This document shows positions 3,531 to 39,542 of a stretch of DNA of 64,000 nucleotides, piece after piece; the stretch's first letter is position 1; each line of letters starts with the position of its first letter. Position numbers and translations under genes: made by a program. The DNA comes from Rhodospirillaceae bacterium (GTDB taxonomy: Bacteria > Pseudomonadota > Alphaproteobacteria > CACIAM-22H2): the NCBI GenBank assembly GCA_022843945.1, contig JALHMR010000005.1, positions 137,716-201,715 on the forward strand, written 5' to 3'. The notes beneath the pieces are model-generated. The model was given only the letters and a program-made list of their open reading frames with translations. It was not told where the DNA came from and made no database searches.

Positions 3531-4470
3531 GATAATATTTGATCGCTCCGGGATGGTAGTCGATGCCGGGATGCTTCACCGCCATGCCCTTGGCATTGAA
3601 CGCGTTGAAGGACGGATGGCCCTTGACCAGCTCATCCCGGTTGGCGGCAAGCGTCTTGACAACCTTGTAGACGGTCTCCTCCTTCACGTCGGCGCTGGTG
3701 AGGACGACGATGTAGTACTCCATGAGAGTCGTCGGGCCGACGATCCCGGGCAGGTTCGGTGCCGGCTGGGTGACCGCCGTGTGATACTCGGGCCGCACGG
3801 CCTGCATCCTGGCAAGCGCAGCCGGCGAGCTGTCGAGCGACAGGAAACGGATGCCGATCGCCGAATCGATCTCCGCCACCTTCGGCGCGCCGACGGCGAA
3901 GATATCGGCGTCGGTCTTGCCGGCCTTGAAGTCATCCGCCGCCCGCAGCAGGTTGGTCGTCGGCACGCCGTCGACATCAGCCAGGCTGATCCCGCCGGTC
4001 GCCAGCATGGCGTTGGACAGCGGGATGCCCTGCAGGAAGCCCTGCCAGCCCGTCGCCATCCGCTTGCCCTTGAGATCGGCGACGGTACGGATATTGGAAT
4101 CCTTGCGCACCATGATGCCGACGGAGAACGGGAACACGGTCAGGGCCACGCGCAGCTTGGCCATCGGCTTGCCCTGGTGCTCGTCCTTGCCGCGGAAGGC
4201 AACGCCGGCCTCGTCGTTGCTGGTGTACGAGAACTCGGCCTGGCCATTCTGCGAGGCACCCATGATCGCAGCCGGTCCATTGAAGGTGAGGACCCGCATC
4301 TGCATATCGCCCTTTTCCTGGACGACCTTGGCGATGGCCTGGGCCTGGACGTTGTTGATCGCGCCCGGCGGCAGGGTGGCGATGGCGATCGGCTGCGCCG
4401 TCGCCGTCCCGCTGCCGGCGGCAAGCAGGACGAGACAGGCGGCGGCTCTCAGGTTCAGCAGGTGTTTCAT
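3502..4470 (-). CDS. TAXI-family TRAP transporter solute-binding subunit
   Basis: ORF 3502..4500 trimmed to MKHLLNLRAAACLVLLAAG (signal peptide). Imp/TAXI-like periplasmic receptor motifs. Confidence 0.8.
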   Translation of the reverse strand: MKHLLNLRAAACLVLLAAGSGTATAQPIAIATLPPGAINNVQAQAIAKVVQEKGDMQMRVLTFNGPAAIMGASQNGQAEFSYTSNDEAGVAFRGKDEHQGKPMAKLRVALTVFPFSVGIMVRKDSNIRTVADLKGKRMATGWQGFLQGIPLSNAMLATGGISLADVDGVPTTNLLRAADDFKAGKTDADIFAVGAPKVAEIDSAIGIRFLSLDSSPAALARMQAVRPEYHTAVTQPAPNLPGIVGPTTLMEYYIVVLTSADVKEETVYKVVKTLAANRDELVKGHPSFNAFNAKGMAVKHPGIDYHPGAIKYYREAGIWPAN

Positions 4471-4533
4471 CGTTCTCTCCCTCTTCCTTTTTTGCCGCAT
4501 GGCGGCTTTCGGTCATTACGGCGAAATTCACCC

Positions 4534-5670
4534 CTACCCGCGAAAATAGGGCATCACTTCCCGTGCGAAGATCTCGATGTTCTTGCGCGTCAGCTCCGCC
4601 GGCAGGGTGCCGAACTGCAGCATGGTCAGCAGATGGCCGAAGCCGATCTCCTTCTGGTACTGCTCGAGCCGGGCCCGGATGGTGGCCACGCCGCCGCACA
4701 GGAACATGCCCTTGGCGATCACGTCGTCGATGCTCTGGCGCGTGCCGATCGAGGTCTTGGCCTTCATCACACCGGCCATCGACTGCAGCGACAGGTAGCC
4801 CGGCGGCAGCAGCATCTCCATTGGCATGCGCAGGAACTTGTTGAGGAAGGCCTCGATATGCGGCTTGGCCTCGCGGTGGGCGATCTCGTCGCTTTCGGCG
4901 ACATAGAGCGGCACCGACCAGCCGAGTTGCTCCTCGCTCGCAGTGTAGCCGTAGCCCTGGGCGACCTCCTTGTACATGGCCATGTAGCGCGCCAGCATCG
5001 CCGCCGGCGTGAAGGTCTGCAGATAGGTGTATTTGCGCTCCGGTGCTGCCGCCCATTCGATGGTTTCGCGGCTGCCCTGCGAGGGAATCCAGATCGGCGG
5101 ACAGGGCTGCTGGTAGGGCCGCGGCCAGGTGTTGACGTAGTCGAAGTGGTAGTACTTGCCCTCGAAGACGAAGGGCCCCGGCTCGGTCCAGGCGCGCAGG
5201 ATCAGATCGTGGGCCTCGTGGAAGCGGTCGTGCGACTCCGCCGGGTTGACGCCGGAGGCATGATACTCGGCGCCGATACCGCGCACGAAGCCGGCGATCA
5301 GCCGCCCGCCCGTGATGTTGTCGAGCATTGCGTACTCTTCCGCCACGGTCAGGGGGTTGTTGAGCAGCGGCAGCGCCCGCCCCAGCACGGCGATCTTCGC
5401 CTGCTTGGTGCGCCGGGACAGCGCCCCGGCCGTCACCGCCGGGATCGGCATCAGGCCGTAGGCATTCTGGTGGTGCTCGTTGACGCAGATACCGTCGAAA
5501 CCGAGCGCGTCGGCCAGCTCGAGCTCGTCGAGATAGCGGTTGTAGAGGACGTGGCCCTTCTTCGGGTCGTAGTAGGTGTTGGGCAGCGTCACCCAGGCCG
5601 AGTTGTATTTCTCGTCATAGCTCTGATCGAGATCGGCGTAGGGCATGAGATGCATGAAGTAGAACTTCAT
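4534..5670 (-). CDS. LLM-class (luciferase-like) flavin-dependent oxidoreductase
   Basis: Start trimmed to MKFYFMHLMPY. The segment GFDGICVNEHHQNAYGLMP is typical of the bacterial luciferase-like family. Confidence 0.8.
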   Translation of the reverse strand: MKFYFMHLMPYADLDQSYDEKYNSAWVTLPNTYYDPKKGHVLYNRYLDELELADALGFDGICVNEHHQNAYGLMPIPAVTAGALSRRTKQAKIAVLGRALPLLNNPLTVAEEYAMLDNITGGRLIAGFVRGIGAEYHASGVNPAESHDRFHEAHDLILRAWTEPGPFVFEGKYYHFDYVNTWPRPYQQPCPPIWIPSQGSRETIEWAAAPERKYTYLQTFTPAAMLARYMAMYKEVAQGYGYTASEEQLGWSVPLYVAESDEIAHREAKPHIEAFLNKFLRMPMEMLLPPGYLSLQSMAGVMKAKTSIGTRQSIDDVIAKGMFLCGGVATIRARLEQYQKEIGFGHLLTMLQFGTLPAELTRKNIEIFAREVMPYFRG

Positions 5671-6449
5671 GTCCCGCCTCCGCCGATGAAGCGGTTGACC
5701 AGGGAGACGAACGCCACCGGCTGCTCGACATGCGGCAGGTGGCCGCAATCGCCCACGATCTCCAGGCGGGCACCGGGGATCAGCCGGGCGAAGGCCGGGC
5801 CGTAGGCCGGCGGAATGACCTGATCATGCTCGCCCCAGATCAGGAGAGTCGGCACGCTCACCCGGTGCAGCCACTTCTCCAGATCCGGGTTGTAGAAGCG
5901 CGGATGCCAGGCGAGCTTGGCCAAAGCGAGGCTGTTCTTCATGCGCGCCATCTGCGCGGCCTCGTTCTGGGGTGCGGCGATCATCGCCTCCGCCAGCTCC
6001 TGGTTGTGGAACAGCCGGCGCGCCGTCTCGTCGGCCGACCACATGAAGACGTCGCCCTTGCGCACACCCTTGACGTGGATGCCGGCCGGCGCCACCAGGG
6101 TCAGGCTCTTGAGCCGCGCGCAGCTGCGCACGGCCAGTTCCGCCGCGATCCAGCCGCCGAGCGAGGCGCCGACCAGGTGCAGGCCCTCGAGGCCGAGCCG
6201 GTCAATAACGTCGAGATAGAAATAGGCGAGGTCACCCACGTTATCGAGCCAGTCGGGCGTGTCCGAGGCGCCGAATCCCGGGTGCTCGGGGACCAGCAGC
6301 TCGTGGCGCTCGGCCAGCGCCTCCATGAACGGCAGCCAGACGGCCGCCCCGCCGGCACCATGCAGGAAGAGGATCGGCGACCCGCTGCCGGCCCGGCTCA
6401 GGCGGAACGTGCAACCGGCAACCGTCTCGGTCGTGACCGTGGGCCCCAT
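5667..6449 (-). CDS. alpha/beta-fold hydrolase
   Basis: HGAGGAAVWLPF... and the nucleophile elbow GASLGGWIA; 4-bp overlap with the downstream LLM gene. Confidence 0.8.
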   Translation of the reverse strand: MGPTVTTETVAGCTFRLSRAGSGSPILFLHGAGGAAVWLPFMEALAERHELLVPEHPGFGASDTPDWLDNVGDLAYFYLDVIDRLGLEGLHLVGASLGGWIAAELAVRSCARLKSLTLVAPAGIHVKGVRKGDVFMWSADETARRLFHNQELAEAMIAAPQNEAAQMARMKNSLALAKLAWHPRFYNPDLEKWLHRVSVPTLLIWGEHDQVIPPAYGPAFARLIPGARLEIVGDCGHLPHVEQPVAFVSLVNRFIGGGGT

Positions 6450-15108: not shown

Positions 15109-15198
15109 TGGCGGACAGGGTGGGATTCGAACCCACGATACCATTGCTGGTATACCGGTTTTCGAGACCGGCGCCTTCAGCCACTCGGCCACCTGTCC
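15109..15198 (-). tRNA. tRNA-Ser (anticodon CGA), long variable arm
   Basis: The reverse complement reads GGACAGGTGGCCGAGTGGCTGAAGGCGCCGGTCTCGAAAACCGG...GGTTCGAATCCCACCCTGTCCGCCA. The acceptor stem is GGACAGG/CCTGTCC, the loop CUCGAAA gives anticodon CGA, and a T-loop and encoded CCA are present. Confidence 0.9.
15160..15198. repeat. 39-bp direct repeat (left copy, inside tRNA-Ser 5' half); putative att core
   Basis: tttcgagaccggcgccttcagccactcggccacctgtcc is identical to 42056-42094. Confidence 0.85.
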
Positions 15199-15316: not shown

Positions 15317-15900
15317 CTACCCGGTTTGTTCTCCCGGTGGCTCTTTCTTCTTTTTGGCCCCGCGTAACGCCTGATCGATCTTTTCGGCCGCCTCGCTGTC
15401 CATGCCCGGCATGACCGAGCTGTACAGATCCATGGTAATTCCGATGGACGCGTGCCCGGCGCGCGCGCTCGCCACCTTCGGATGGACACCCGACGCACAA
15501 AGCCAGGTAATGTGGGTATGCCTTAAGTCGTGGAACCTGATCTTGAGGCCCATCTCCAGCATGATCCTGTGAAACCCGCTGCTCAGGCATGTAGGGTTCT
15601 GCAGGCGGCCGTTTCGTTGGCACACGACCAAGTCGTTGTCTTCGTAACCAGAGCCCAATCCCCGTCATCCGCTTCGACCGGAAGATGAGGGTGTCGACGC
15701 TGGCGCTGGTCGAGATGCTCAAGAATCCGCAGGGATATTGCCCGACCTGAGGGATCGCTCCTGCTGGGAACATAGAAGGGCAGTTGCTCATTGCCGAGCC
15801 CACCACACTCCGTCGGCACTGGCTGCCGCCGTGCATCGACGGCAGCGTCCGAACGGCCTGCGCCATCGTAGAGAGAGGCCGCAACGCAGCGGGGCGGCAA
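15317..15900 (-). pseudogene. Tyrosine recombinase (integrase) remnant, frameshifted/truncated
   Basis: Only the 113-aa C-terminal catalytic fragment remains (15317-15658: ...RFHDLRHTHITW...HASIGITMDLYSSV, the R-H-R-Y region). Upstream reading frames are broken and overlap other ORFs. Confidence 0.7.
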
Positions 15901-19024: not shown

Positions 19025-20401
19025 ATGAGTCGGGGAGGTCGGTTCAAGTACGAGACAAACATCCTGATGGCCTCTCGTTACGGACACCATCGAAGCGCGT
19101 TGTGGCCGCCAGGCCCGTTACACAATCTGTTTTGCCTAGATCTTGCTGCTTATGCGCCGCCACTTTCTCCGCGCTTCTACGTCGAGCTCGATAACATTCG
19201 CTTTCTCGTCGCGGCCGAATGGGAGCGGTGCAAGGCTGCGGGGACGGCGCTCGATCGTCGGTTCGCTGAAGCATCAGCTCTGGCAGCGGCGTTTCGGAGC
19301 CTGAGCACCCACGTGGTGGACGAGCAAGATCGAGCTGCACTTGCGCACAGGGAGAGAGCGATGCTGACCGGCTATACGCCGGAGATACTTCGCGGGCTCG
19401 CGGAAACGGATGAGAAACTCACTGTCGTTGCTGGACACCTCTCAACCTGGTTTGGAAAAGAGGCTGCCGGCCGGCCCACGGTTTTTGCTGCCATTCGCGA
19501 CGAAGCAACCGAGCGCCTCGTTGCTAGCACGACCGCGACGGTACCGGAACTTGCCGACTACGTGTCCAGAATAGATCCCGACCTGATGTTCGCCTCGCCT
19601 CCCGCGTTCAGTTCGACAAACGTGTTTTTTATGGCCGGCGAGGGCAACCTTCATCCGAAGCATGTCGCATACTTCCTGCCGGAGGACGAGGGCGTTCGGG
19701 GGTCTCCATACAAAAAGACCTACTACTTCAACAACACGCACCGCGCCTACGTGTCGTCGATTTCATTGCCTCTCTATGAGCAGTACGCAGCACACGATCA
19801 GATTTGCAGCGCAGACAGCCTTGACCTGTTGCCTGCTCTTGGGGTGCGCGCACACGATCTCGGCCATAGTGTTAATCGTGCAAAGACCACCTTTCGCGAG
19901 CTGAACCGGCGTCATCGCTGGGAATCAGTGCTGCTCCAAGAGACAGCAGCGGACGTCTTTGGAGCGCTGTTCATTACCGATGTGTGGCCAAAGCACTTTC
20001 AGTACTCGGCCGAAGAAGGCGTCGCCTATTTTCTTGCTGAGTGCCTGCGCTACGTCGATCGAGGCCTCGGGCTCTTTCCAGATTCGGACGGAATGTTCCT
20101 GCAGCTGAACTATCTTCAGCAACATTCATATCTCCACATCGACCGTTCGCCATCGCCTCGGCTTCGGTGGGATCCGCAAGAAGTCGTCCGCGGTCTCCAA
20201 GCGCTGGCCCGTGTCCTGGCTGACGTAGTCCTTTCGGGCGATGCCGGGGCTGCCGTTGCATTCCACCACGAGTATGGGCCTTCGAATCGAAGCGCTCTAT
20301 CAGGCCTGCTCACATCGCTGGAAAGCCGCCCAATGGCATCGATCGAGTACCTGCAGGAGCATGTTGTTTCGGAGCACAGCAAATCCACCGAAGCCGCCTA
20401 A
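19025..20401 (+). CDS. Hypothetical protein (458 aa), first gene of the plus-strand operon
   Basis: Long ORF with island-like codon usage and no recognisable motif. It contains HDLGH and several conserved-looking His/Asp residues. Confidence 0.5.
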   Translation: MSRGGRFKYETNILMASRYGHHRSALWPPGPLHNLFCLDLAAYAPPLSPRFYVELDNIRFLVAAEWERCKAAGTALDRRFAEASALAAAFRSLSTHVVDEQDRAALAHRERAMLTGYTPEILRGLAETDEKLTVVAGHLSTWFGKEAAGRPTVFAAIRDEATERLVASTTATVPELADYVSRIDPDLMFASPPAFSSTNVFFMAGEGNLHPKHVAYFLPEDEGVRGSPYKKTYYFNNTHRAYVSSISLPLYEQYAAHDQICSADSLDLLPALGVRAHDLGHSVNRAKTTFRELNRRHRWESVLLQETAADVFGALFITDVWPKHFQYSAEEGVAYFLAECLRYVDRGLGLFPDSDGMFLQLNYLQQHSYLHIDRSPSPRLRWDPQEVVRGLQALARVLADVVLSGDAGAAVAFHHEYGPSNRSALSGLLTSLESRPMASIEYLQEHVVSEHSKSTEAA

Positions 20402-20415
20402 GGACGAGGAACCCG

Positions 20416-29479: not shown

Positions 29480-29815
29480 ATGCCTACCCCCCATCGGCCC
29501 TCCCTCGCGGTACGCCGCACGCTGCGGAAGCTTGGCCGGGATCTACGCGACGCCCGCCGCCGTCGCCGACTCCCCGCCGAAGTCGTAGCGCAGCGAGCCT
29601 TCACCACCCGTCCGACGCTTCGGCGTATCGAGGCGGGCGACCACGGCGTCAGCATCGGCATCTACGCCGCCGCCCTGCATGCGCTGGGCCTGCTGGAAGG
29701 GCTGGGCCAGCTCGCGGATCCGTCCCGGGACAGCACGGGCCTGGCGCTGGCCTCTGAAAACTTGCCCCAACGCGCCCGTCTCCCGCGCGCAGGCACGGAT
29801 AACGATGCCCAATGA
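29480..29815 (+). CDS. HipB-like XRE-family HTH antitoxin (second module)
   Basis: LRKLGRDLRDARRRRRLPAEVVAQRAFTTRPTLRRIEAGD is an HTH_XRE motif. It overlaps the downstream hipA-like gene by 11 bp. Confidence 0.65.
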   Translation: MPTPHRPSLAVRRTLRKLGRDLRDARRRRRLPAEVVAQRAFTTRPTLRRIEAGDHGVSIGIYAAALHALGLLEGLGQLADPSRDSTGLALASENLPQRARLPRAGTDNDAQ

Positions 29816-31055
29816 CATCGAGGTCTTCATCGAGTTCTCCCCCGGCCTGAAACGTGTCGGCACCCTCCACCGATACCAACGCCAGGAGCGGGAGGCCGTC
29901 GGTTTCGAGTATCACCCGGCCTGGCTCGAGGAGCCGGAACAATTCTCCCTCGAGCCGGCGCTGACCCTGCATCGGGGCGCCTTTGTGCCGGCCGAGGGCC
30001 TGACCATCTTCGGCTCGATCGGCGATTCGGCACCCGACACATGGGGGCGAAGGCTCATGCAGCGGGCCGAGCGCCGGCGTGCCGAACGCGAAGGACGGAG
30101 GGTCAGGGCCCTGATGGAGGCGGACTACCTGCTGGGGGTATCCGATGTAGCCCGGCTGGGCGCGCTTCGCTTCCGGCGGGCCGGGGAGGAGCATTTCCAG
30201 GCGCAGGCAGACCAGGGTGTCCCGGGACTGATCGAGCTCCAGCGTCTGTTGGGAATCACCGAGCGGATCCTCAGGAACGAGGAGACGGACGAGGATATCC
30301 AGATGATCTTCGCGCCGGGCTCATCCCTCGGCGGATCCCGGCCCAAAGCCTCGGTGATCGATCGGGACGGGCATCTTGCTTTGGCGAAGTTCCCCAAAGA
30401 GAACGACGACTACAGCCTGGAGCTTTGGGAGGCCGTCGCGCTGCAACTGGCAGCTCGCGCCGGCATCAACACATCAGAGCATCGACTGATCGAAGCCGCC
30501 GGCAAGCCCGTCCTTCTCTCCCGACGCTTCGATCGGGCTCAAGGTACCCGAGTTCCCTTCCTCTCCGCCCTGTCCATGCTCGGCATGAAGGATGGGGACC
30601 GTGGCAGCTATCCCGACCTGGTCGATGTCTTGAGCCAGCACGGTGCGCAAGCGGCAGATGACGCCAGGGAGCTGTACCGTCGCATGGTCTTGAACGTTCT
30701 TATCTCGAACGTCGACGACCATTTGCGAAATCACGGCTTCCTATGGACGGGGCGCAAAGGATGGGCCCTCTCTCCGGTTTACGACCTGAACCCTGTTCCC
30801 ACTGACATCAAGTCCCGGATACTGACGACCAATATCAGCCCGGACGAAGGCACTTGCGATATGCGCCTCGTCTTGGACGCCGCAGAATATTTTTCCTTGG
30901 ACGGGGCTGCGGCAAAGGAAATCGTCAAAGAAGTCGCAGCCGCCACGGCAGAATGGCGAAACGTTGCAAGAAGTTTTAATGCGCCGCCTGCTGAAATCCG
31001 TCGCATGGAGAGCGCGTTCGAGCACGAGGATCTACAAAGAGCCTTGGCATTGTGA
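29805..31055 (+). CDS. HipA-like Ser/Thr kinase (second, divergent copy)
   Basis: FAPGSSLGGSRPKAS (P-loop-like/couple motif) and NVLISNVDDHLRNHGFL...SPVYDLNP (HipA_C catalytic motifs). Start trimmed to MPNDIEV; 416 aa. Confidence 0.8.
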   Translation: MPNDIEVFIEFSPGLKRVGTLHRYQRQEREAVGFEYHPAWLEEPEQFSLEPALTLHRGAFVPAEGLTIFGSIGDSAPDTWGRRLMQRAERRRAEREGRRVRALMEADYLLGVSDVARLGALRFRRAGEEHFQAQADQGVPGLIELQRLLGITERILRNEETDEDIQMIFAPGSSLGGSRPKASVIDRDGHLALAKFPKENDDYSLELWEAVALQLAARAGINTSEHRLIEAAGKPVLLSRRFDRAQGTRVPFLSALSMLGMKDGDRGSYPDLVDVLSQHGAQAADDARELYRRMVLNVLISNVDDHLRNHGFLWTGRKGWALSPVYDLNPVPTDIKSRILTTNISPDEGTCDMRLVLDAAEYFSLDGAAAKEIVKEVAAATAEWRNVARSFNAPPAEIRRMESAFEHEDLQRALAL

Positions 31056-31115: not shown

Positions 31116-31376
31116 GTGTATACTTCTCTCGCCATGGATAAGGCCACCCGCGAACAGATATTCGAGATCATCCGCGAGGAAGTCGCGAAGGATCGCGGCG
31201 TCATAGCAGCGGAGATCGGCCAGACGATACAGAAGCGTCTCAACATCCGGCTTTCAAACAATCAGTTGAATGCCTATCGAAAGCAGATTGGCCTAAACTC
31301 CCTCGCCCTATTTGAAGAGGATTTCCATAGGCAAGTTTCGGAAGCCGCAATGAGACTGTTTCCAAAGCGCCGCTGA
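31116..31376 (+). CDS. Small hypothetical protein (86 aa)
   Basis: Unique ORF with island codon usage and no motif; first of a 3-gene plus-strand group. Confidence 0.35.
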   Translation: MYTSLAMDKATREQIFEIIREEVAKDRGVIAAEIGQTIQKRLNIRLSNNQLNAYRKQIGLNSLALFEEDFHRQVSEAAMRLFPKRR

Positions 31377-31513
31377 CTTTCGCGGGATAGATATGCCATC
31401 TCAACGTTATCGGAACCCGGCATAAAGTCCTCCGATTACACTAAACCTGCCATTCTGGGACTTGGTGCGACTCGTGCGCTAGTACTAGCCTTAAGGCTCC
31501 ATAGGAGTCGAAA

Positions 31514-32113
31514 ATGAGCCGGGCCAGCGCCGAAACCTTGAACCAGTTCATGCAGCGCCGTGGCATAGCGCCGGTGGCGGGCGGAGCCGAAAACTTCCTG
31601 GCGAATTTCCGGCAGCACTTCACTGCGATCGAGCTCTGTCTCACGAACGGCTTGCGTACCCCGGCCCTGGTACTGATCTACTCAACGATCGACGCACTGG
31701 CCGGCGCTGCCAGACCGGCGCATGTGCCCTCTCAGACCCGACGCGATTTTATCGCCTGGGCCGAAGGCGACATGCGCTGCCGGGCGCGGCTCGATATCCG
31801 CGGCCTCGACCTCTATGCCGCGCGTTGCAGCGTCTTGCATGCTCACAGCCAGTCCTCGAATCTGTCGAATTCCGGCAAGGCCAAAGGTCTCATATATGCT
31901 TGGGGCGATCGTGACCCCGCACCCGCCAACGATCTCCTGCGGCAACTTCGTCTCGACAGCGAGGCGCACATGATTCGGATAGAAACGCTCTTCGACGCGC
32001 TGTGCAACGGGTTCGAGACGTTGTGCCAGCGTGCCGCTGAGGATGACGCTTTGTCGAGTCTCCTCGTCCACCGTGCGGGCAAGATCTTTGCCAACCGAGC
32101 CACTTTTCCCTGA
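31514..32113 (+). CDS. Hypothetical protein (199 aa)
   Basis: ORF 9 bp upstream of the T5orf172 gene; no recognisable motif. Confidence 0.4.
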   Translation: MSRASAETLNQFMQRRGIAPVAGGAENFLANFRQHFTAIELCLTNGLRTPALVLIYSTIDALAGAARPAHVPSQTRRDFIAWAEGDMRCRARLDIRGLDLYAARCSVLHAHSQSSNLSNSGKAKGLIYAWGDRDPAPANDLLRQLRLDSEAHMIRIETLFDALCNGFETLCQRAAEDDALSSLLVHRAGKIFANRATFP

Positions 32114-32122
32114 GGCCGGGTC

Positions 32123-33289
32123 ATGTTCGTTTATGTGGCCGCGGCGTCAGCCGAGGGCCCCTGCAAAATCGGATCGGCGATCGACCCTCACAGGCGTTTG
32201 CGTGCGCTGCAGACGGGAAGCGCCCGGTCGCTCTCCCTTTATATGGTCGAGCCAATCGGCATCACCGCCAAGCAGATCGAGCGAGCCGTGCACGAGATAT
32301 TGGCTAGCCGGCGCGCCGGCGGCGGCAAGGAGTGGTTCGATGTCGCTCCTGCCGAAGCCGCAGCGGCTGTCCGGGCGGCAGCCATAACCGCCAACTCATC
32401 GCTCGACGACAATCTCAGCCTTGATGAGTTGCAGACCAGGACCATCCTTGCCTGGGTGAAAGCCTATGAAGAGCTTCGGCAGCAGGCCGAAGAGGCCGAC
32501 GAGTACTATGAGGCTGAGGATCGAGAGCCGCCCTCTTTTCTGTCGTTGTTCGCCGCGACCCTCCGTCCGCAACACACCGGCCGCTTCGATTTCAACGACT
32601 ACCTCCTGTCGCTTTCGGATGGAATGTGGCTGCGCTGGGCGTTTGAACGGCTAGACAAACGTCTTCCCACCGGGCGAAAAATCGAGCCTTACATTGAAGC
32701 AGCCCAGTATCTCGAGGAGGATGCTGGGTGTCGCGAGAGAGTTGAGCCCCTGATCTGCTGGATCGAGTGGAGCGCTGCGCGCGAGCTGACCCATCGTGAA
32801 GCTCATCATTTCGCGTCTATCTGGGATGAGTTCGCGCCCCGTCACAACCGCATCGAGCGCTACGGTCCGCAATGGGCAACCTACGGCATCGATGACCATG
32901 TCGACGATGTGCATGTTCTCGCCCTTCGTGGGGATGAGCGCCGGGGTGACCGCGACCGCATACTGTTCGTCCATCAGGACTTCAGAGTGGTGCTGGTGCC
33001 TGAGAAGCGCATCGATCTCTGGGGTGATCGCGAGTGGCGCCTCAACCTCAACCCCCTGAAAGGTATCGCGGTCTCGGGCTTCGTCACGCCGATCCTGCGC
33101 AGCGGGGACTGGCGCATACCCTTCCGGCCCTGGCTGCGCGGTTCCCGCCAGCGCGTCGATCAGAGTCTGCACCGGTTCCTGGACAATCCGGCCAAGCGCT
33201 ATCCCGTACAACGCGCTTACGACGGAATTCAACCGCAGACCTGCGTGTGGTGCCAGCTGCCGTCAATCGACCAGAATGGCCATTACTGA
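32123..33289 (+). CDS. T5orf172/MUG113 (GIY-YIG-like) domain protein with about 290-aa C-terminal unknown domain
   Basis: N-terminal VYVAAASAEGPCKIGSAIDPHRRLRALQTGSA...KEWFD matches the T5orf172 pattern (YV....-KIG.T....R...LQT). The C-terminal region is Trp/Arg-rich and unassignable. Confidence 0.55.
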   Translation: MFVYVAAASAEGPCKIGSAIDPHRRLRALQTGSARSLSLYMVEPIGITAKQIERAVHEILASRRAGGGKEWFDVAPAEAAAAVRAAAITANSSLDDNLSLDELQTRTILAWVKAYEELRQQAEEADEYYEAEDREPPSFLSLFAATLRPQHTGRFDFNDYLLSLSDGMWLRWAFERLDKRLPTGRKIEPYIEAAQYLEEDAGCRERVEPLICWIEWSAARELTHREAHHFASIWDEFAPRHNRIERYGPQWATYGIDDHVDDVHVLALRGDERRGDRDRILFVHQDFRVVLVPEKRIDLWGDREWRLNLNPLKGIAVSGFVTPILRSGDWRIPFRPWLRGSRQRVDQSLHRFLDNPAKRYPVQRAYDGIQPQTCVWCQLPSIDQNGHY

Positions 33290-33570
33290 GGATCTGCACC
33301 TCGGGGGTTTCTGTCTCAGGCAGTAAGAGCGCCACAGCCCCTTCGAGCGCGCTCCAGATCACACGCAGCTCAGCCGATCTTCAGGGCTGAGCGGCCGCAC
33401 ATGGTGTGAGTCAGTCGCCGCTGCGCTCCTTCGTCGAATTCGCGGAGAGTCATGGGACAGACCGCGGAGATTGGCCGTCGCCCTTCGAGGATCTCGATGC
33501 GCTGAAGGGCCGGCATCTATCCCTCATAGGTGGCTGCAGGCTATGAAAGGCCGCTAGCTGTCTGCTGTGA

Positions 33571-34245
33571 TCAGCTACTCTGTCGACCGGCTGGGCCGAT
33601 ATGGCCGATGTATGGCATCCATTGAGCCAAGTCCACCAGACGCTGAATCTCCTTGGACCGTAGTATCGACAGAATGATCGATGCAATTTCATGATGGATG
33701 AGGTTCCGATCGTTCACCGCTAACGACAGACCAGCCATCCCTTCGTGCTCTAGACGCCAAAGCAGTTCGAACTTTTCCTTTTGCGACTTCTGCGCACGGC
33801 CCGCGGGGTCGTAGTGATTTCCACCCTTCGTATTAGCAATGAACTGGATCAGCGCGTGGCGCGATATCTTCATTCCCTTGAAGTAGATGCAGGGCGCTCG
33901 AAGGAAGTCGGGAAGATTGAAGCGCTTCGGCTCGAGATGCACATCGTCTCCCCATCCGGTCGAGATCGGAACGCCTGGCATGATTTCGGCCCCGCCGCAG
34001 AAGCCGACCGACTGAGACCCGGGAGGGGATGAAAAGGCCATTGCATCGACGACGATCGGCCCGCCAATTCCGGACGTTTTCCAGGCGCGTGCGAGATTCT
34101 CTTCCACCAGCAGGAACCGCAAAGAAGCAGCGGCTACGCGAAGTCTGTGCTCTCCCGCAGCCGGCGCGGCCGCATTCCGAAGCACAAGCAAATGCTCCAC
34201 ACTCATCTTGAGCAGATCTACTTCCTCTCTCGAAAAGATCTTCAT
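33571..34245 (-). CDS. Hypothetical protein (224 aa), downstream partner of the CoiA-DUF2384 gene
   Basis: Same strand, 83-bp gap after the 582-aa gene. No RES/Fic/HEPN motif detected. Confidence 0.4.
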   Translation of the reverse strand: MKIFSREEVDLLKMSVEHLLVLRNAAAPAAGEHRLRVAAASLRFLLVEENLARAWKTSGIGGPIVVDAMAFSSPPGSQSVGFCGGAEIMPGVPISTGWGDDVHLEPKRFNLPDFLRAPCIYFKGMKISRHALIQFIANTKGGNHYDPAGRAQKSQKEKFELLWRLEHEGMAGLSLAVNDRNLIHHEIASIILSILRSKEIQRLVDLAQWMPYIGHIGPAGRQSS

Positions 34246-34328
34246 GGAGCCGACCGCCAGCTTGTTACTAGGCTAAAACGTGTTCCTGGTGAAATTGTTG
34301 GGCGCGCAGGCATCGAACGCCACGCTCG

Positions 34329-36077
34329 TCAGTCACGAAACGGGCGGCCGACGGCGCTGTAAGCCTCGCAAAAGGCAGCATGATAGTTCCCGGTGCGCGC
34401 GCTTTCGACTGGTGACGACCCCCCAAGGGCCTCACAGGGTGTTTCGAGCCAACGATCAGAAAGCCCCAGCTGCGCTGCCACAGCCCGTATAGTCCTCTCG
34501 TGTAGCTGCGCTGCAAGGAGGGCAAGCTCCTCGTCCCGCTCCCTCTTTGCACGAGCCCGTTCCTCTGCCTCCCGCCTTCTGATCGTCAGTATCCGATCAA
34601 GTGGGAGGCCCATGAGATCGTCGACCGGCTCACCGCCCGGTACCAACATCGCTTGAAGCGCCGCCAGCTTGCGCAGCAGCTCGCCGTGAGCGATGCCGCG
34701 TTCGCAAAGCTGCCGTGGGGAGGGCCCAAGATTTTCACCGGCGGTATCGAACCATCTCCTTGGGTCAAAGCCGTTTCGATCAGCAGGATCAAGCTCATTG
34801 ATGATCGCGTCGCAACGGTCCAGCACTGCTGCGGCCCGCTCCTTGAATAACTGTTCGCTCAGCTGCCTCTGTTCTTCGTCAGACCAGACATCGTGGCTGA
34901 TACGCCGATGACCGCGGCCTGCTTTCTCCAGGATGCGTTTGCCTTCGAGGAAATCGACATAGGCCATCAGCACGTTGAACGGGGACACGAAATCCGGGAT
35001 CTCGCGCCGCACGGCGGCCTCGTCCGCATCGCTGATGAACCCGCTAAGTCCGCCCGCGATCAGATGATACAAGCGGGGATAATCGAAGGCATCCTTCAGC
35101 GTGAACGTGGACGAACGGCGTTCGCGCAGCGGGCCCATAACAAACCGATCTATGAGGAGCGCCTGCCAAACCGCTGGAGCGACGGTGAACGCGAAGTCTC
35201 CTTCGACCGCCGGGCCAACCAGGTTGCCAAAACGGCTGTTCCGGACATTCTCGAGGATACCGGCCAGTACAGGAGGAGGGGGCTGCCGGCGGTCGGCCGC
35301 GACTTTCGCCTCGGTCGTAGCCGCGACGAGCTTGGCGACCCGTCCCGCTTGCGCGCGCCGGCGTTCCTGGTCCGCGCGCTCCTGTATTTGACGCCGCCGC
35401 TCCGCCTGTTGCTTGAGCCTGCTCTCTGCAGCGGCAATCCTCGAATTGTATATCCATTCTCTCGGCGCCAGGCTATGCAGCGCCGCAGCGACGTCCGGGA
35501 TCGCGGCATTGCGTACCAGTCGCGAAAGATCGATCTCGACAGTGTCGAGATCCATTTCCGCAAGCCGCTTCTTCTTCTCACGCCCGCATTTGTGGGTGTA
35601 ATAGATCTCTATCAACAGATCCCGCCCGCCGACCGTCGCCATTACATCGGGGATGACTCCGTCGAGCCGCTCCTCGATCCGGACATTGATGAGAGTGACT
35701 TCGGCTTCTTCGGCGATGACTACCGATTGCTCGTCGCCAGATGCGACGAGAGCCGGAAGGAGCAAGACCGGGTGCTGTTCCAGAATCTGCTTGCCGAGAA
35801 GATGGACGATCGTCTGGGGACCGGTGCGGCAGTTCGTTCCCGGCGGATGCGCGAAATGATCCTGCTTCTCTTCGCCATGACGCGCGATGAGCGGCGATTT
35901 GCACGCAGGACAGATGCAGCCGCAGGCCGCGCCGTTCGGGACGGTCGACACATGCACGACCTCGCCGTTGCGCAGCGCGTAAGCCAGCTTGACGCCGTCG
36001 CCTGACCAACGGTTGCCCTCGAAAGCGCACTCCGAAACAGGTGGCGCGGTTAAGTGACTTTCGGTCGTCATTGGCAA
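34329..36077 (-). CDS. Fusion protein: N-terminal CoiA-like putative PD-(D/E)xK nuclease, C-terminal DUF2384 (Xre/MbcA/ParS antitoxin-type) domain
   Basis: N-terminus CGCICPACKSPLIARHGEEKQDHFAH (CoiA Zn-ribbon plus the HFAH hallmark) and ...DVMATVGGRDLLIEIYYTHK (nuclease-core-like). C-terminus RWLETPCEALGGSSPVESARTGNYHAAFCEAYSAV matches the W-L-x-T-P-x-x-A-L-G-G-x-x-P DUF2384 signature. Confidence 0.55.
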   Translation of the reverse strand: MPMTTESHLTAPPVSECAFEGNRWSGDGVKLAYALRNGEVVHVSTVPNGAACGCICPACKSPLIARHGEEKQDHFAHPPGTNCRTGPQTIVHLLGKQILEQHPVLLLPALVASGDEQSVVIAEEAEVTLINVRIEERLDGVIPDVMATVGGRDLLIEIYYTHKCGREKKKRLAEMDLDTVEIDLSRLVRNAAIPDVAAALHSLAPREWIYNSRIAAAESRLKQQAERRRQIQERADQERRRAQAGRVAKLVAATTEAKVAADRRQPPPPVLAGILENVRNSRFGNLVGPAVEGDFAFTVAPAVWQALLIDRFVMGPLRERRSSTFTLKDAFDYPRLYHLIAGGLSGFISDADEAAVRREIPDFVSPFNVLMAYVDFLEGKRILEKAGRGHRRISHDVWSDEEQRQLSEQLFKERAAAVLDRCDAIINELDPADRNGFDPRRWFDTAGENLGPSPRQLCERGIAHGELLRKLAALQAMLVPGGEPVDDLMGLPLDRILTIRRREAEERARAKRERDEELALLAAQLHERTIRAVAAQLGLSDRWLETPCEALGGSSPVESARTGNYHAAFCEAYSAVGRPFRD

Positions 36078-37302: not shown

Positions 37303-37890
37303 TCACTCCGCAGTGGCCGGGAGCGAATCAACTCCAAGTTCGCGATGAAGTATTTCAATCACAGCAATCGCTTGCATGGTTACTTCATCGTGCTGCTGTC
37401 CTGCCAACAGCACTCCCTGTGCGGCGCTGCTGAACGCTACTGCATTTGCGCCGCGCTTGCCGTCCTCACCCGTAAGAGCACGATCAAAAGCAGTCAACGA
37501 ACTCATTGCAATGGCCGCCGACCCATCAGGATCAGTATTGAGCATGCGTTCAATGACCTCGAAGGCCGCCTCGGCGTCTTTCTTTAATCCTTGAAGCCGC
37601 TCCAGCTCGATCGGTAGCAACTCCCTGCCACTTAGTAGTGATTGCGCCGCATATAGGGTGACCATTGCGTTCTGCACGTCGCGTAGCTGCGCAAGTACTG
37701 CGGAGACATGCCAGTTTAGTTCCGGGAGGTCAGCGCGCCACCGGCTCTCAAACTCTAAATCCGGGAGAGCTGCGTACTTTGTGATTTGAATTGCCATCTG
37801 TGCCACGATGGATGAGCGCAGCAGCGGCACCACGACCAAAGCCGATGACGATTCGCAAACTCTCCTCAGTTCCTGAAGATGATGGTTCAC
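37303..37890 (-). CDS. Hypothetical protein (195 aa), translationally coupled to upstream NTPase
   Basis: Its start overlaps the NTPase stop by 4 bp; alpha-helical, no motif. Confidence 0.4.
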   Translation of the reverse strand: MNHHLQELRRVCESSSALVVVPLLRSSIVAQMAIQITKYAALPDLEFESRWRADLPELNWHVSAVLAQLRDVQNAMVTLYAAQSLLSGRELLPIELERLQGLKKDAEAAFEVIERMLNTDPDGSAAIAMSSLTAFDRALTGEDGKRGANAVAFSSAAQGVLLAGQQHDEVTMQAIAVIEILHRELGVDSLPATAE

Positions 37891-39542
37891 CCACTGGCTA
37901 AACTCAAAAAGGGTTCCGCACGGAACGAGTAAACATATTTCCCAATCCGGCCATGCAATATCTCGCGTGACCGCAGGTCATGAAGCCCACGGATTGCTCC
38001 GCCCTCATCGGCGCCAACAAGATGCTCATTCCGAAGACGAAGGAAGGCGATGGCAAACTCCGTCTCCGACAGCCCTGAAGTTTCGAGTAACGAGGGCCTT
38101 TCGATGCGTGCTCCATACATGCCTGCTACCGCAGCGATGGGAAGCACGGCCAGTTCATGTCTGCGGCCCTCTCGAACACGCCGTTGAACCTGTTCGAAAA
38201 TGACGTCACGCAGCCGTGCGCCCTGAGTCAGGATGTGCGTGAATTCGAGCAGGAGCCCTCCGGATTGCTCGTAGGCTTCCTTCCAGTGCCCACGGCTCGT
38301 CGCCTTAGCTTCACGCAGTCGTGTCCAGATTCTTTCGGCGAGCTCTTCGAGAAGTTTGGGCCGCTCAATGGTGACGTGGTCAAGCGCAGCCAATACCCCG
38401 ACATCTTCTTCGCGGATTGAGCCTACGACTCGCAGACCTGGCAGGTACCGAGCCTGATCAACCAGCCAGGCCCAGGTCGTATCGGCGCCGCGTCCAACGT
38501 CATCTACATAGACAACAAGAGGGCGATCGGCAGTCGGCGCCTGGGACCGGATGCTTCTCAGCAAGGTCGCTCTGTCAGATTCAGCCATCCTTGCCGCTTC
38601 GATCCAACGAAGGGCATGGCGTGTTTCAAACGCTGCCAGATAACAAAGCGCGCTTTTGCCAGACCCGGAAGGCCCAGCCACCAATACGTGGCGGCCTAAC
38701 AGGAGAGGCCTTACAACGGCATCGACGTCCTCCGGGCGGGGCTGCACCAGACCCGCTGCGACATGGCCTGAACGAGTAGAAACACCTTCGTAGTAGTGCT
38801 GGTCGTGAACTGGCGTATGGAAGTCTATGAACTGGGCTAAGCCCTGTCGAAACGCGCCGTCAACGGCTTCAGAATCTATGAGATTGAGAGCTCGAGAGAA
38901 GACTGCGTGGACGTCCCCAACCGTGATAGAAGCCCGTGCATTGTATGCGCGTCGTGCATTCTCGGAGGCCGTCACGCCCACCTGATGCAACAAGCTACGG
39001 GCACACAGCGCGGCTCCGGCGATTCCTATTCCACACTTGTTTGCGATCAGTGCCTCCGCGTCACGAAGTGGCGCCAATACGGTGATTAACGTCGTTCGCT
39101 CGAGGCGCGCCCGCATCAGAGACTGTCTCGCTGGCTCGTCAGCAACGGCATCTAGAAGTGCGTTGGCAAGCTGAGGCAGATCAGCAATGCGCCGCTGCCA
39201 ATCGCGATTTTCAATGTCCAGAAAGGGGCGATCCAAAAAGATCGTACGCCGATCCTCATCGGCGCCCTTGCCGCTCAGAATGATGTCGGCGATTTCCTTC
39301 GCCCTGAATTGTGCTTTTGGATCAATCTTGGATTTCGCTTGAATCCAGTTCGCTCCCGCCGCCCCTTCCACGCCTATGTCATCAAGTGACTCAGGAGTGA
39401 CGGAGTTGGCGGCTATCTCGCCGTGCCAGATTGCCGTTAGTACGAAAACGGTCGCGGCGTCCTGAAAGCGAAATCCTGCTCCGGCACGGGCACCCGCCCG
39501 ACTTGCCTGCCAAGCAAGTGTCATTGGATCTGCGTCGGCCAT
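37887..39542 (-). CDS. P-loop NTPase with N-terminal restriction-endonuclease-like region (defence-associated?)
   Basis: Walker A VLVAGPSGSGKSALCYL and Walker B LVVYVDDVG. The N-terminal region GFRFQDAATVFVL...DDIGVEG...IQAKSK has a D...E/QxK-like nuclease motif; 551 aa. Confidence 0.6.
   Translation of the reverse strand: MADADPMTLAWQASRAGARAGAGFRFQDAATVFVLTAIWHGEIAANSVTPESLDDIGVEGAAGANWIQAKSKIDPKAQFRAKEIADIILSGKGADEDRRTIFLDRPFLDIENRDWQRRIADLPQLANALLDAVADEPARQSLMRARLERTTLITVLAPLRDAEALIANKCGIGIAGAALCARSLLHQVGVTASENARRAYNARASITVGDVHAVFSRALNLIDSEAVDGAFRQGLAQFIDFHTPVHDQHYYEGVSTRSGHVAAGLVQPRPEDVDAVVRPLLLGRHVLVAGPSGSGKSALCYLAAFETRHALRWIEAARMAESDRATLLRSIRSQAPTADRPLVVYVDDVGRGADTTWAWLVDQARYLPGLRVVGSIREEDVGVLAALDHVTIERPKLLEELAERIWTRLREAKATSRGHWKEAYEQSGGLLLEFTHILTQGARLRDVIFEQVQRRVREGRRHELAVLPIAAVAGMYGARIERPSLLETSGLSETEFAIAFLRLRNEHLVGADEGGAIRGLHDLRSREILHGRIGKYVYSFRAEPFLSLASG

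Follow-up and report, generated by a model that had tools for sequence, protein, structure and literature searches.

Within a 64,000-nucleotide (nt) stretch of DNA from a Rhodospirillaceae bacterium (contig JALHMR010000005.1, positions 137,716 to 201,715; the whole stretch is hereafter called the window), the gene p388 (32123-33289, plus strand; 388 amino acids, aa) encodes a two-domain protein that we regard, at about even confidence, as an autonomous, horizontally mobile single-gene nuclease resembling a homing endonuclease. This reading draws on features observed in the family itself (i.e. its domain identity, its two-part architecture, the absence of conserved linkage to other genes, its close position behind a same-strand gene and its foreign base composition) and it departs from a preliminary description of the locus, in which p388 and the two genes ahead of it (p86 and p199) had been taken for a multi-gene defence system or, alternatively, a selfish nuclease. 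What is new here is the rare nuclease architecture, the unassigned C-terminal domain and the unusual distribution as a bare open reading frame (ORF), while the locus does not hold the three-gene defence system that had been proposed.

The three plus-strand genes of 86, 199 and 388 aa were confirmed together with their coordinates: the first (31116-31376) reads as 86 aa from a GTG at 31116 and is on record in the NCBI source as an 80-aa form starting from the ATG at 31134 (p80, 31134-31376; a small, basic protein), the second (p199, 31514-32113) encodes a 199-aa HEPN-like protein with the motif R104-x4-H109, and the third is p388. Their reported tight linkage holds for the last two genes, which are separated by exactly 9 nt, but not for p80, which ends 137 nt ahead of p199. 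All three sequences were searched by tblastn against every fetched locus, which comprised 11 distinct contexts of p388 relatives (L001, L002, L008 = L011, L009, L010, L012, L013, L014, L015, L016, L017/18 and L019) and 4 contexts of p199 relatives (L003, L004/5 and L006/7). Relatives of p388 and p199 occurred together in none of them, no T5orf172 gene adjoined the p199 relatives, and p86 was found at none of the loci; the p199-p388 adjacency is present on this contig only (0 of 15 other contexts). The multi-gene reading thus fails because the genes are unlinked in all homologous contexts, an outcome that the preliminary description had itself named as decisive, and a conserved two- or three-gene module (p80 + p199 + p388) was rejected by context sampling. 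The PADLOC check that had been proposed for the island recovered no system, its sole match being a candidate PDC-S57 restricted to the nuclease domain; likewise, PADLOC, Pfam, NCBIfam and PHROGs revealed no known defence system, returning nothing of the kind for p80 or p199 and, for p388, matches confined to its nuclease domain.

The N-terminal part of p388 (residues 1 to ~91; 32123-32395, plus strand) places the protein in the T5orf172/GIY-YIG superfamily, since the profile, motif and fold tests were all passed. Residues 2-84 match the Pfam families T5orf172 (PF10544; E = 6.4e-11, 43.1 bits over a cut-off of 20) and MUG113 (PF13455; E = 1.9e-10, 41.6 bits over a cut-off of 22.3), so that the motif noticed in the preliminary description was correctly read and scores above the Pfam cut-offs; conservation in the alignment of p388 homologues reaches 90% or more at Y4, K15, G17, R25 and E70-W71-F72, the domain has the GIY-YIG alpha/beta fold, and all full-length homologues bear both the T5orf172 and the MUG113 domains. 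T5orf172 is a subfamily of GIY-YIG (PMC10448857), and the T5orf172 nuclease Odn keeps the catalytic Arg and Glu (the conserved Glu being the residue changed in its E180A mutant; PMC8263062). From this literature, combined with our mapping of the motifs, R25 and E70 of p388 would be equivalent to the catalytic pair, and the motif pattern suggests that Y4, R25 and E70 correspond to Y6, R27 and E75 of I-TevI (PDB 1ln0); in contrast to I-TevI, the second GIY-YIG tyrosine is replaced by a lysine (K15), as is typical of T5orf172, and p388 lacks an intron context as well as a zinc-finger, minor-groove or helix-turn-helix (HTH) DNA-binding tail. Judged by its sequence, p388 is a predicted DNA endonuclease. 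The PADLOC match to PDC-S57 aligns residues 3-91 of p388 with profile positions 8-98 of 212 (E = 2.2e-6) and recurs, again over the nuclease domain only, in 9 of 10 family members (best E = 2.1e-10); membership of p388 in PDC-S57 was rejected in the lack of a full-length profile match, because what matches is only the common nuclease domain.

The remainder of the protein (residues ~92-388, ~290 aa; 32396-33286, plus strand) is a family-specific domain, recognisable by conserved columns in the family alignment (41 of them invariant) and rich in tryptophan. It comprises a helical part (residues 100-247), a beta-sheet (263-323) and a further helix (334-353), it holds the motif GIDDHVDDVH, and it found no match in Pfam, NCBIfam or the PDB by sequence, nor by fold comparison. 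The earlier characterisation of this region as Trp/Arg-rich and devoid of an assignable fold stands as far as composition (Trp 4.1%, Arg 11.6%) and fold matches are concerned, yet the region is acidic overall (isoelectric point, pI, 5.6) and constitutes a conserved domain. Ten full-length homologues of p388 (41-53% identity) were recovered among 5.8 billion proteins, and the C-terminal domain profile alone retrieved 36 representatives among 1.84 billion; the full-length matches are nearly all 380-430 aa long, with the domain following T5orf172 from about residue 92, and therefore it is seen solely in fusion with the T5orf172 nuclease domain. One apparent match (P0048, 1547 aa, with 25 stretches matching the C-terminal profile) was discarded as a low-complexity tandem-repeat artefact. 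The p388 family is very rare and patchy, and its nearest relatives sit in alphaproteobacterial metagenome-assembled genomes. Signs of decay are found in N-terminally truncated members (e.g. P0009) and in a C-terminal fragment adjacent to an insertion sequence (IS) in L013 (177-1636 for the transposase gene and fragment together), where an IS3-family transposase gene (rve and HTH_21 domains) lies directly upstream of the stretch corresponding to query residues 286-388; this arrangement suggests that the homologue was disrupted by the IS element. Apart from the IS3 transposase beside this fragment, no integrase or transposase accompanies a p388-family gene in the contexts examined.

In almost every context the p388-family gene stands alone among unrelated neighbours, and an unrelated same-strand gene stands upstream in 7 of the 8 readable contexts (window included), at a distance of 6-50 nt in 5 of them. 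The upstream genes encode class II ribonucleotide reductase (RNR; nrdJ, 50 nt away in L002 and 34 nt in L010), HemB (27 nt, L014), a DUF433-DUF5615 toxin-antitoxin pair (38 nt, L017/18) and unknown proteins (6 nt in L016, 9 nt in L019). Such downstream placement is not universal, as the gap behind a P-loop protein gene reaches 187 nt in L001 and the copy in L011 is divergent from its neighbours, i.e. XRE-HTH and AbiJ_NTD3 (4.5e-48) genes encoded opposite to it (4518-5851, minus strand). Beyond these two genes the small defence islet continues with two more, one DUF7689-like and one coding for an unknown 355-aa protein, and it abuts housekeeping genes. In L009 and L012 the gene is 5'-truncated by the contig end and adjoins MFS or PQ-loop transporter genes, and in L015 it has no called neighbour. 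It stands alone in intergenic DNA next to genes that are conserved or essential (nrdJ in L002 and L010, hemB in L014); the neighbourhood in L014 is purely housekeeping (ribD, nrdR, glyA, rpiB, hemB, the p388-family gene, SDR and TRAP transporter), and the identical protein (P0046) was read on 14 contigs. In L014 the gene is also flanked by an imperfect inverted repeat detected by eye (2255-2275 and 3533-3553: GGGTTAGGGTTGGTTCGGTC ... GACCGAACGTTAAGCCTACCC), which does not recur at other loci and may be a terminator hairpin that was split or a mark left by the insertion.

The composition of the gene at third codon positions (GC3) usually sets it apart from its surroundings: 0.43 against flanks of 0.91-0.94 in L014, 0.43 against 0.94 and 0.87 in L019, 0.47 against 0.79 in L010, 0.58 against 0.89 in L002, 0.59 against 0.90 in L009 and 0.49 against 0.85 in L012. 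The L011 copy is host-like (0.83). Taken together, these contexts support the selfish-nuclease half of the preliminary description, in the sense of a solo, compositionally foreign, single-gene insertion. Moreover, because the relatives sit tightly behind quite different genes, we ascribe the 9 nt between p199 and p388 to the behaviour of the incoming gene and do not take them as evidence of a pairing of the two.

A homing-like element is favoured because the architecture, the placement near RNR genes, the patchiness and the truncations match those of phage T5orf172 homing genes. Members of this group in phages have been treated as free-standing homing endonuclease genes, 33% of which have ribonucleotide reductase genes in their neighbourhood (PMC10448857). 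Like the homing genes of ICP1 (Gp53, Gp121 and Gp130) and of T5-like phages described in the same work (PMC10448857), p388 combines a terminal nuclease domain with a separate large domain, its family occurs as stand-alone intergenic genes near conserved essential genes (including those for ribonucleotide reductase), and both groups are patchy and include truncated copies. Unlike them, the p388 family resides on bacterial (probably alphaproteobacterial) chromosomes, and its partner domain is unique, acidic and Trp-rich instead of being the CapR, DUF723 or DUF4397 zinc-finger domain of the phage genes. On this analogy, the p388 gene would move horizontally as a bare ORF, settle at a distance of a few up to some tens of nucleotides behind an unrelated same-strand gene and borrow the transcription of that gene (in the window, p199); its product would cut DNA in a sequence- or structure-specific manner, the C-terminal domain would recognise the target, and cleavage followed by repair would promote the spread or retention of the gene, as in a free-standing homing endonuclease. 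A more specific proposal, which we put forward as tentative, is that the family constitutes a chromosomal homing-endonuclease-like element of Alphaproteobacteria that enters the 3' flanks of conserved genes such as nrdJ and hemB by means of an undescribed C-terminal targeting domain.

Several observations weigh against this interpretation. The homing reading draws on genomic context: neither an empty-site allele nor a target site nor any event of homing is in evidence, no search for empty sites having been made. Across 8-10 loci we found no repeats in common (terminal, inverted or direct), no duplicated target and no recurring motif at the junctions, a result by which a transposon or integrative element was rejected as well. 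Documented T5orf172 homing genes are phage-borne, and full-length relatives of p388 were found in 0 of 50,697 phage records and 0 of 72,556 plasmids, nor did a pattern-based scan of IMG/VR return any. The matches in the phage and plasmid collections cover residues 1-74 only (in genes that alphaproteobacterial phages and plasmids carry under the label 'GIY-YIG nuclease family protein'), and a phage or plasmid origin of p388 was rejected for want of a full-length match there. Furthermore, the C-terminal domain matches no DNA-binding fold or DNA-binding Pfam domain, and in 9 of 10 members it is acidic (pI 4.9-6.3), which is atypical for the targeting domain of a homing endonuclease. The two nrdJ-linked loci (L002 and L010) may reflect shared ancestry, their proteins being 75% identical and their DNA alignment extending from the 3' end of nrdJ through the gene. 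Lastly, the contexts rich in toxin-antitoxin or defence genes (window, L011 and L017) suit a defence role equally well, and the layout of the window, with its 9-nt gap, a ribosome-binding site (RBS) overlapping a stop codon and equal GC3, would also suit a true operon.

The main rival, which we consider possible and yet somewhat doubtful, is that p388 acts as a single-gene anti-phage nuclease, whose C-terminal domain, acting as a sensor for phage DNA, for a modification of DNA or for a phage protein, would free the nuclease domain to cut DNA; its patchy and foreign distribution would then reflect the horizontal gain and loss that is usual among defence genes. The N-terminal domain resembles both PDC-S57 and PD-T4-3 (a single-gene GIY-YIG defence nuclease, PDB 9u75), with which p388 shares the single-gene organisation, the GIY-YIG-type nuclease domain and, for some copies of the family, neighbourhoods of defence or toxin-antitoxin genes: the window copy lies among HipA, AbiEi, HEPN-like and STAND-like genes, that of L011 beside AbiJ_NTD3 and XRE genes and that of L017 behind the DUF433-DUF5615 pair. 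An acidic C-terminal domain, unlike a DNA-binding one, would moreover suit a sensor. On the other hand, that domain is unrelated to those of PD-T4-3 and PDC-S57, the similarity to the PDC-S57 profile ends with the common nuclease domain, and several copies (L014, L002, L010, L009 and L012) occupy plain housekeeping surroundings. Alternatively, p388 may be a domesticated, non-mobile T5orf172 regulator that binds nucleic acids (like CapR of PLE) or a protein with some other host role, the low GC3 being then due to ancient transfer or to selection on expression. Such domestication has a precedent in the PLE-encoded CapR, a relative of the ICP1 T5orf172 homing genes that takes part in the antagonism of ICP1 by PLE (PMC10448857), and the identical P0046 on its 14 contigs suggests stable residence in one lineage, just as the host-like GC3 of the L011 copy and the strong conservation of the whole protein (pointing to purifying selection) agree with it. 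We deem it improbable nonetheless, given that the catalytic-type Arg and Glu are nearly invariant, that truncated and IS-adjacent fragments exist, and that an extremely rare and patchy gene whose neighbours differ almost everywhere is unlike one that serves a host function.

Equally improbable, in our estimation, is that p199 and p388 (perhaps with p80 as regulator or antitoxin) form a newly assembled, lineage-specific toxin-antitoxin or abortive-infection operon, in essence what the preliminary description had proposed. The arrangement in the window accords with it in several respects: the Shine-Dalgarno sequence of p388 (GAGG, 7 nt ahead of its ATG) overlaps the stop codon of p199 across the 9-nt gap, GC3 is nearly the same in both genes (0.72 in p388, 0.73 in p199), and a terminator-like hairpin with a T-rich tail (33286-33314, plus strand; consensus scan) is present only directly after the p388 stop. 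(The scan for promoter and terminator consensus sequences was otherwise at background level, with terminator-like sites at or below the shuffle expectation, and only this hairpin is notable.) A small DNA-binding partner such as p80 becomes conceivable from the fusion of an XRE HTH to the p199 relative P0014, and p80 itself has a weak match to a PHROG 'transcriptional regulator' (E = 0.008). Against this stand the confinement of the p199-p388 pairing to a single contig, the equally tight position of p388 relatives behind quite different genes, and the fact that p80 is remote from p199 and devoid of homologues; furthermore, two nuclease effectors without a recognisable antitoxin or sensor do not correspond to a known design.

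The protein p199, which the preliminary description had called a complete orphan, turned out to have 10 homologues (31-47% identity), and both p199 and p388 can be considered genuine genes because homologues exist for each. The motif R104-C-S-V-L-H109 includes four residues (R104, C105, L108 and H109) that are invariant in 11 of 11 members, and because of the invariant R104-x4-H109 we consider p199, with moderate confidence, as a HEPN-like protein and probable RNase, probably of the toxin or Abi type and with a distribution of its own. In the window it is probably co-transcribed with p388, and an AGGAG sequence stands ahead of it. It shares the R-x4-H motif with HEPN toxins and Abi proteins (HEPN-MNT toxin 7ae2/5yep, AbiV 9bj5, RnlA/LsoA and Csm6), and, as in these, the protein is small and occurs beside toxin-antitoxin genes: the relative P0014 (285 aa) carries the HEPN-like domain behind an N-terminal XRE/HigA-like HTH, and its gene directly follows a MazE-like/PIN toxin-antitoxin pair (L006 2155-3670; L007 232-1747). 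In contrast to the HEPN proteins, p199 has an additional beta-hairpin and a helical C-terminal extension, and it lacks a Pfam or PADLOC HEPN match (0 of 11 family members match the curated models at E <= 5), a significant Foldseek match (the top one being a HEPN protein at a non-significant E = 1.1) and an adjoining minimal nucleotidyltransferase (MNT) or recognisable antitoxin. No nucleotidyltransferase domain is present in p80, p388 or any of the neighbours in L003-L007, and the possibility that p199 belongs to a HEPN-MNT toxin-antitoxin pair was rejected on the absence of an adjacent MNT. No NCBIfam model was matched by p80, p199 or p388, and the PDB holds no sequence relatives of the p199 and p388 families. 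The first gene, p80 (p86), is an orphan ORF of uncertain reality and function, as it has no homologue among 5.8 billion proteins and no clear RBS; its GC frame pattern is coding-like.

The three genes are housed in a low-GC island (~15.2-42 kb; GC 0.56-0.60 against 0.67-0.72), with GC3 values of 0.62-0.74 in the island genes against 0.89-0.92 in the core genes, and with a left boundary formed by tRNA-Ser(cga) (15109-15198, minus strand) and a decayed tyrosine-recombinase remnant. The latter is a 113-aa ORF (15317-15658, minus strand) which retains the C-terminal catalytic part (..HDLRHT..GH..Y) and marks the left edge. We consider it an even prospect that the locus consists of three unrelated genes that accreted in this tRNA-Ser-linked island, rich in toxin-antitoxin and defence genes. 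Genes for two HipA kinases, an AbiEi protein, a CoiA_N-domain protein and a STAND-like NTPase lie nearby: the HipA-family genes (26798-28096 and 29679-31055, the latter accompanied by a HipB-like XRE ORF at 29480-29815) enclose the AbiEi gene (28400-29287, minus strand), downstream of which there is no space for the usual AbiEii partner. Converging on p388 is a gene pair (33571-36077, minus strand): the first gene encodes a 582-aa protein that carries a CoiA_N domain (3.1e-8) and weakly resembles DruB at its N-terminus, and an unannotatable gene (224 aa) is located 83 nt downstream of it. Farther along, two genes (37303-39542, minus strand) may constitute a STAND-type defence pair: one encodes a 551-aa P-loop protein (weak nSTAND_NTPase5 and AAA_16 matches), and it overlaps by 4 nt the downstream 195-aa gene, which lacks a family match. 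Also inside the island, seven co-oriented genes (19025-26201, plus strand) encode an unknown 458-aa protein, an S-adenosylmethionine (SAM) methyltransferase, a pyridoxal-phosphate (PLP) decarboxylase of the Orn/DAP type, a DapD-like hexapeptide succinyltransferase, a class I/II aminotransferase, a GNAT protein and an EamA exporter, a cluster that looks like a cassette for the biosynthesis and export of an amino-acid-derived small molecule. The Rfam search for RNA elements (26-37.5 kb) gave no match at E <= 0.1.

The locus carries a caution, in that tight gene spacing inside a defence island is not evidence of a system, and it adds a small HEPN-like R-x4-H family that the current Pfam and PADLOC models miss. 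If the solo-gene reading of p388 is true, a T5orf172/GIY-YIG nuclease with a new C-terminal domain enters bacterial core chromosomes as a bare ORF, which would offer a tractable case for how homing-type elements spread beyond phages. The tentative proposal of a chromosomal homing element, if true, would carry T5orf172 homing beyond phage genomes and into the core chromosomes of bacteria. On the solo-gene reading, the p388 family might moreover yield new sequence-specific nucleases.

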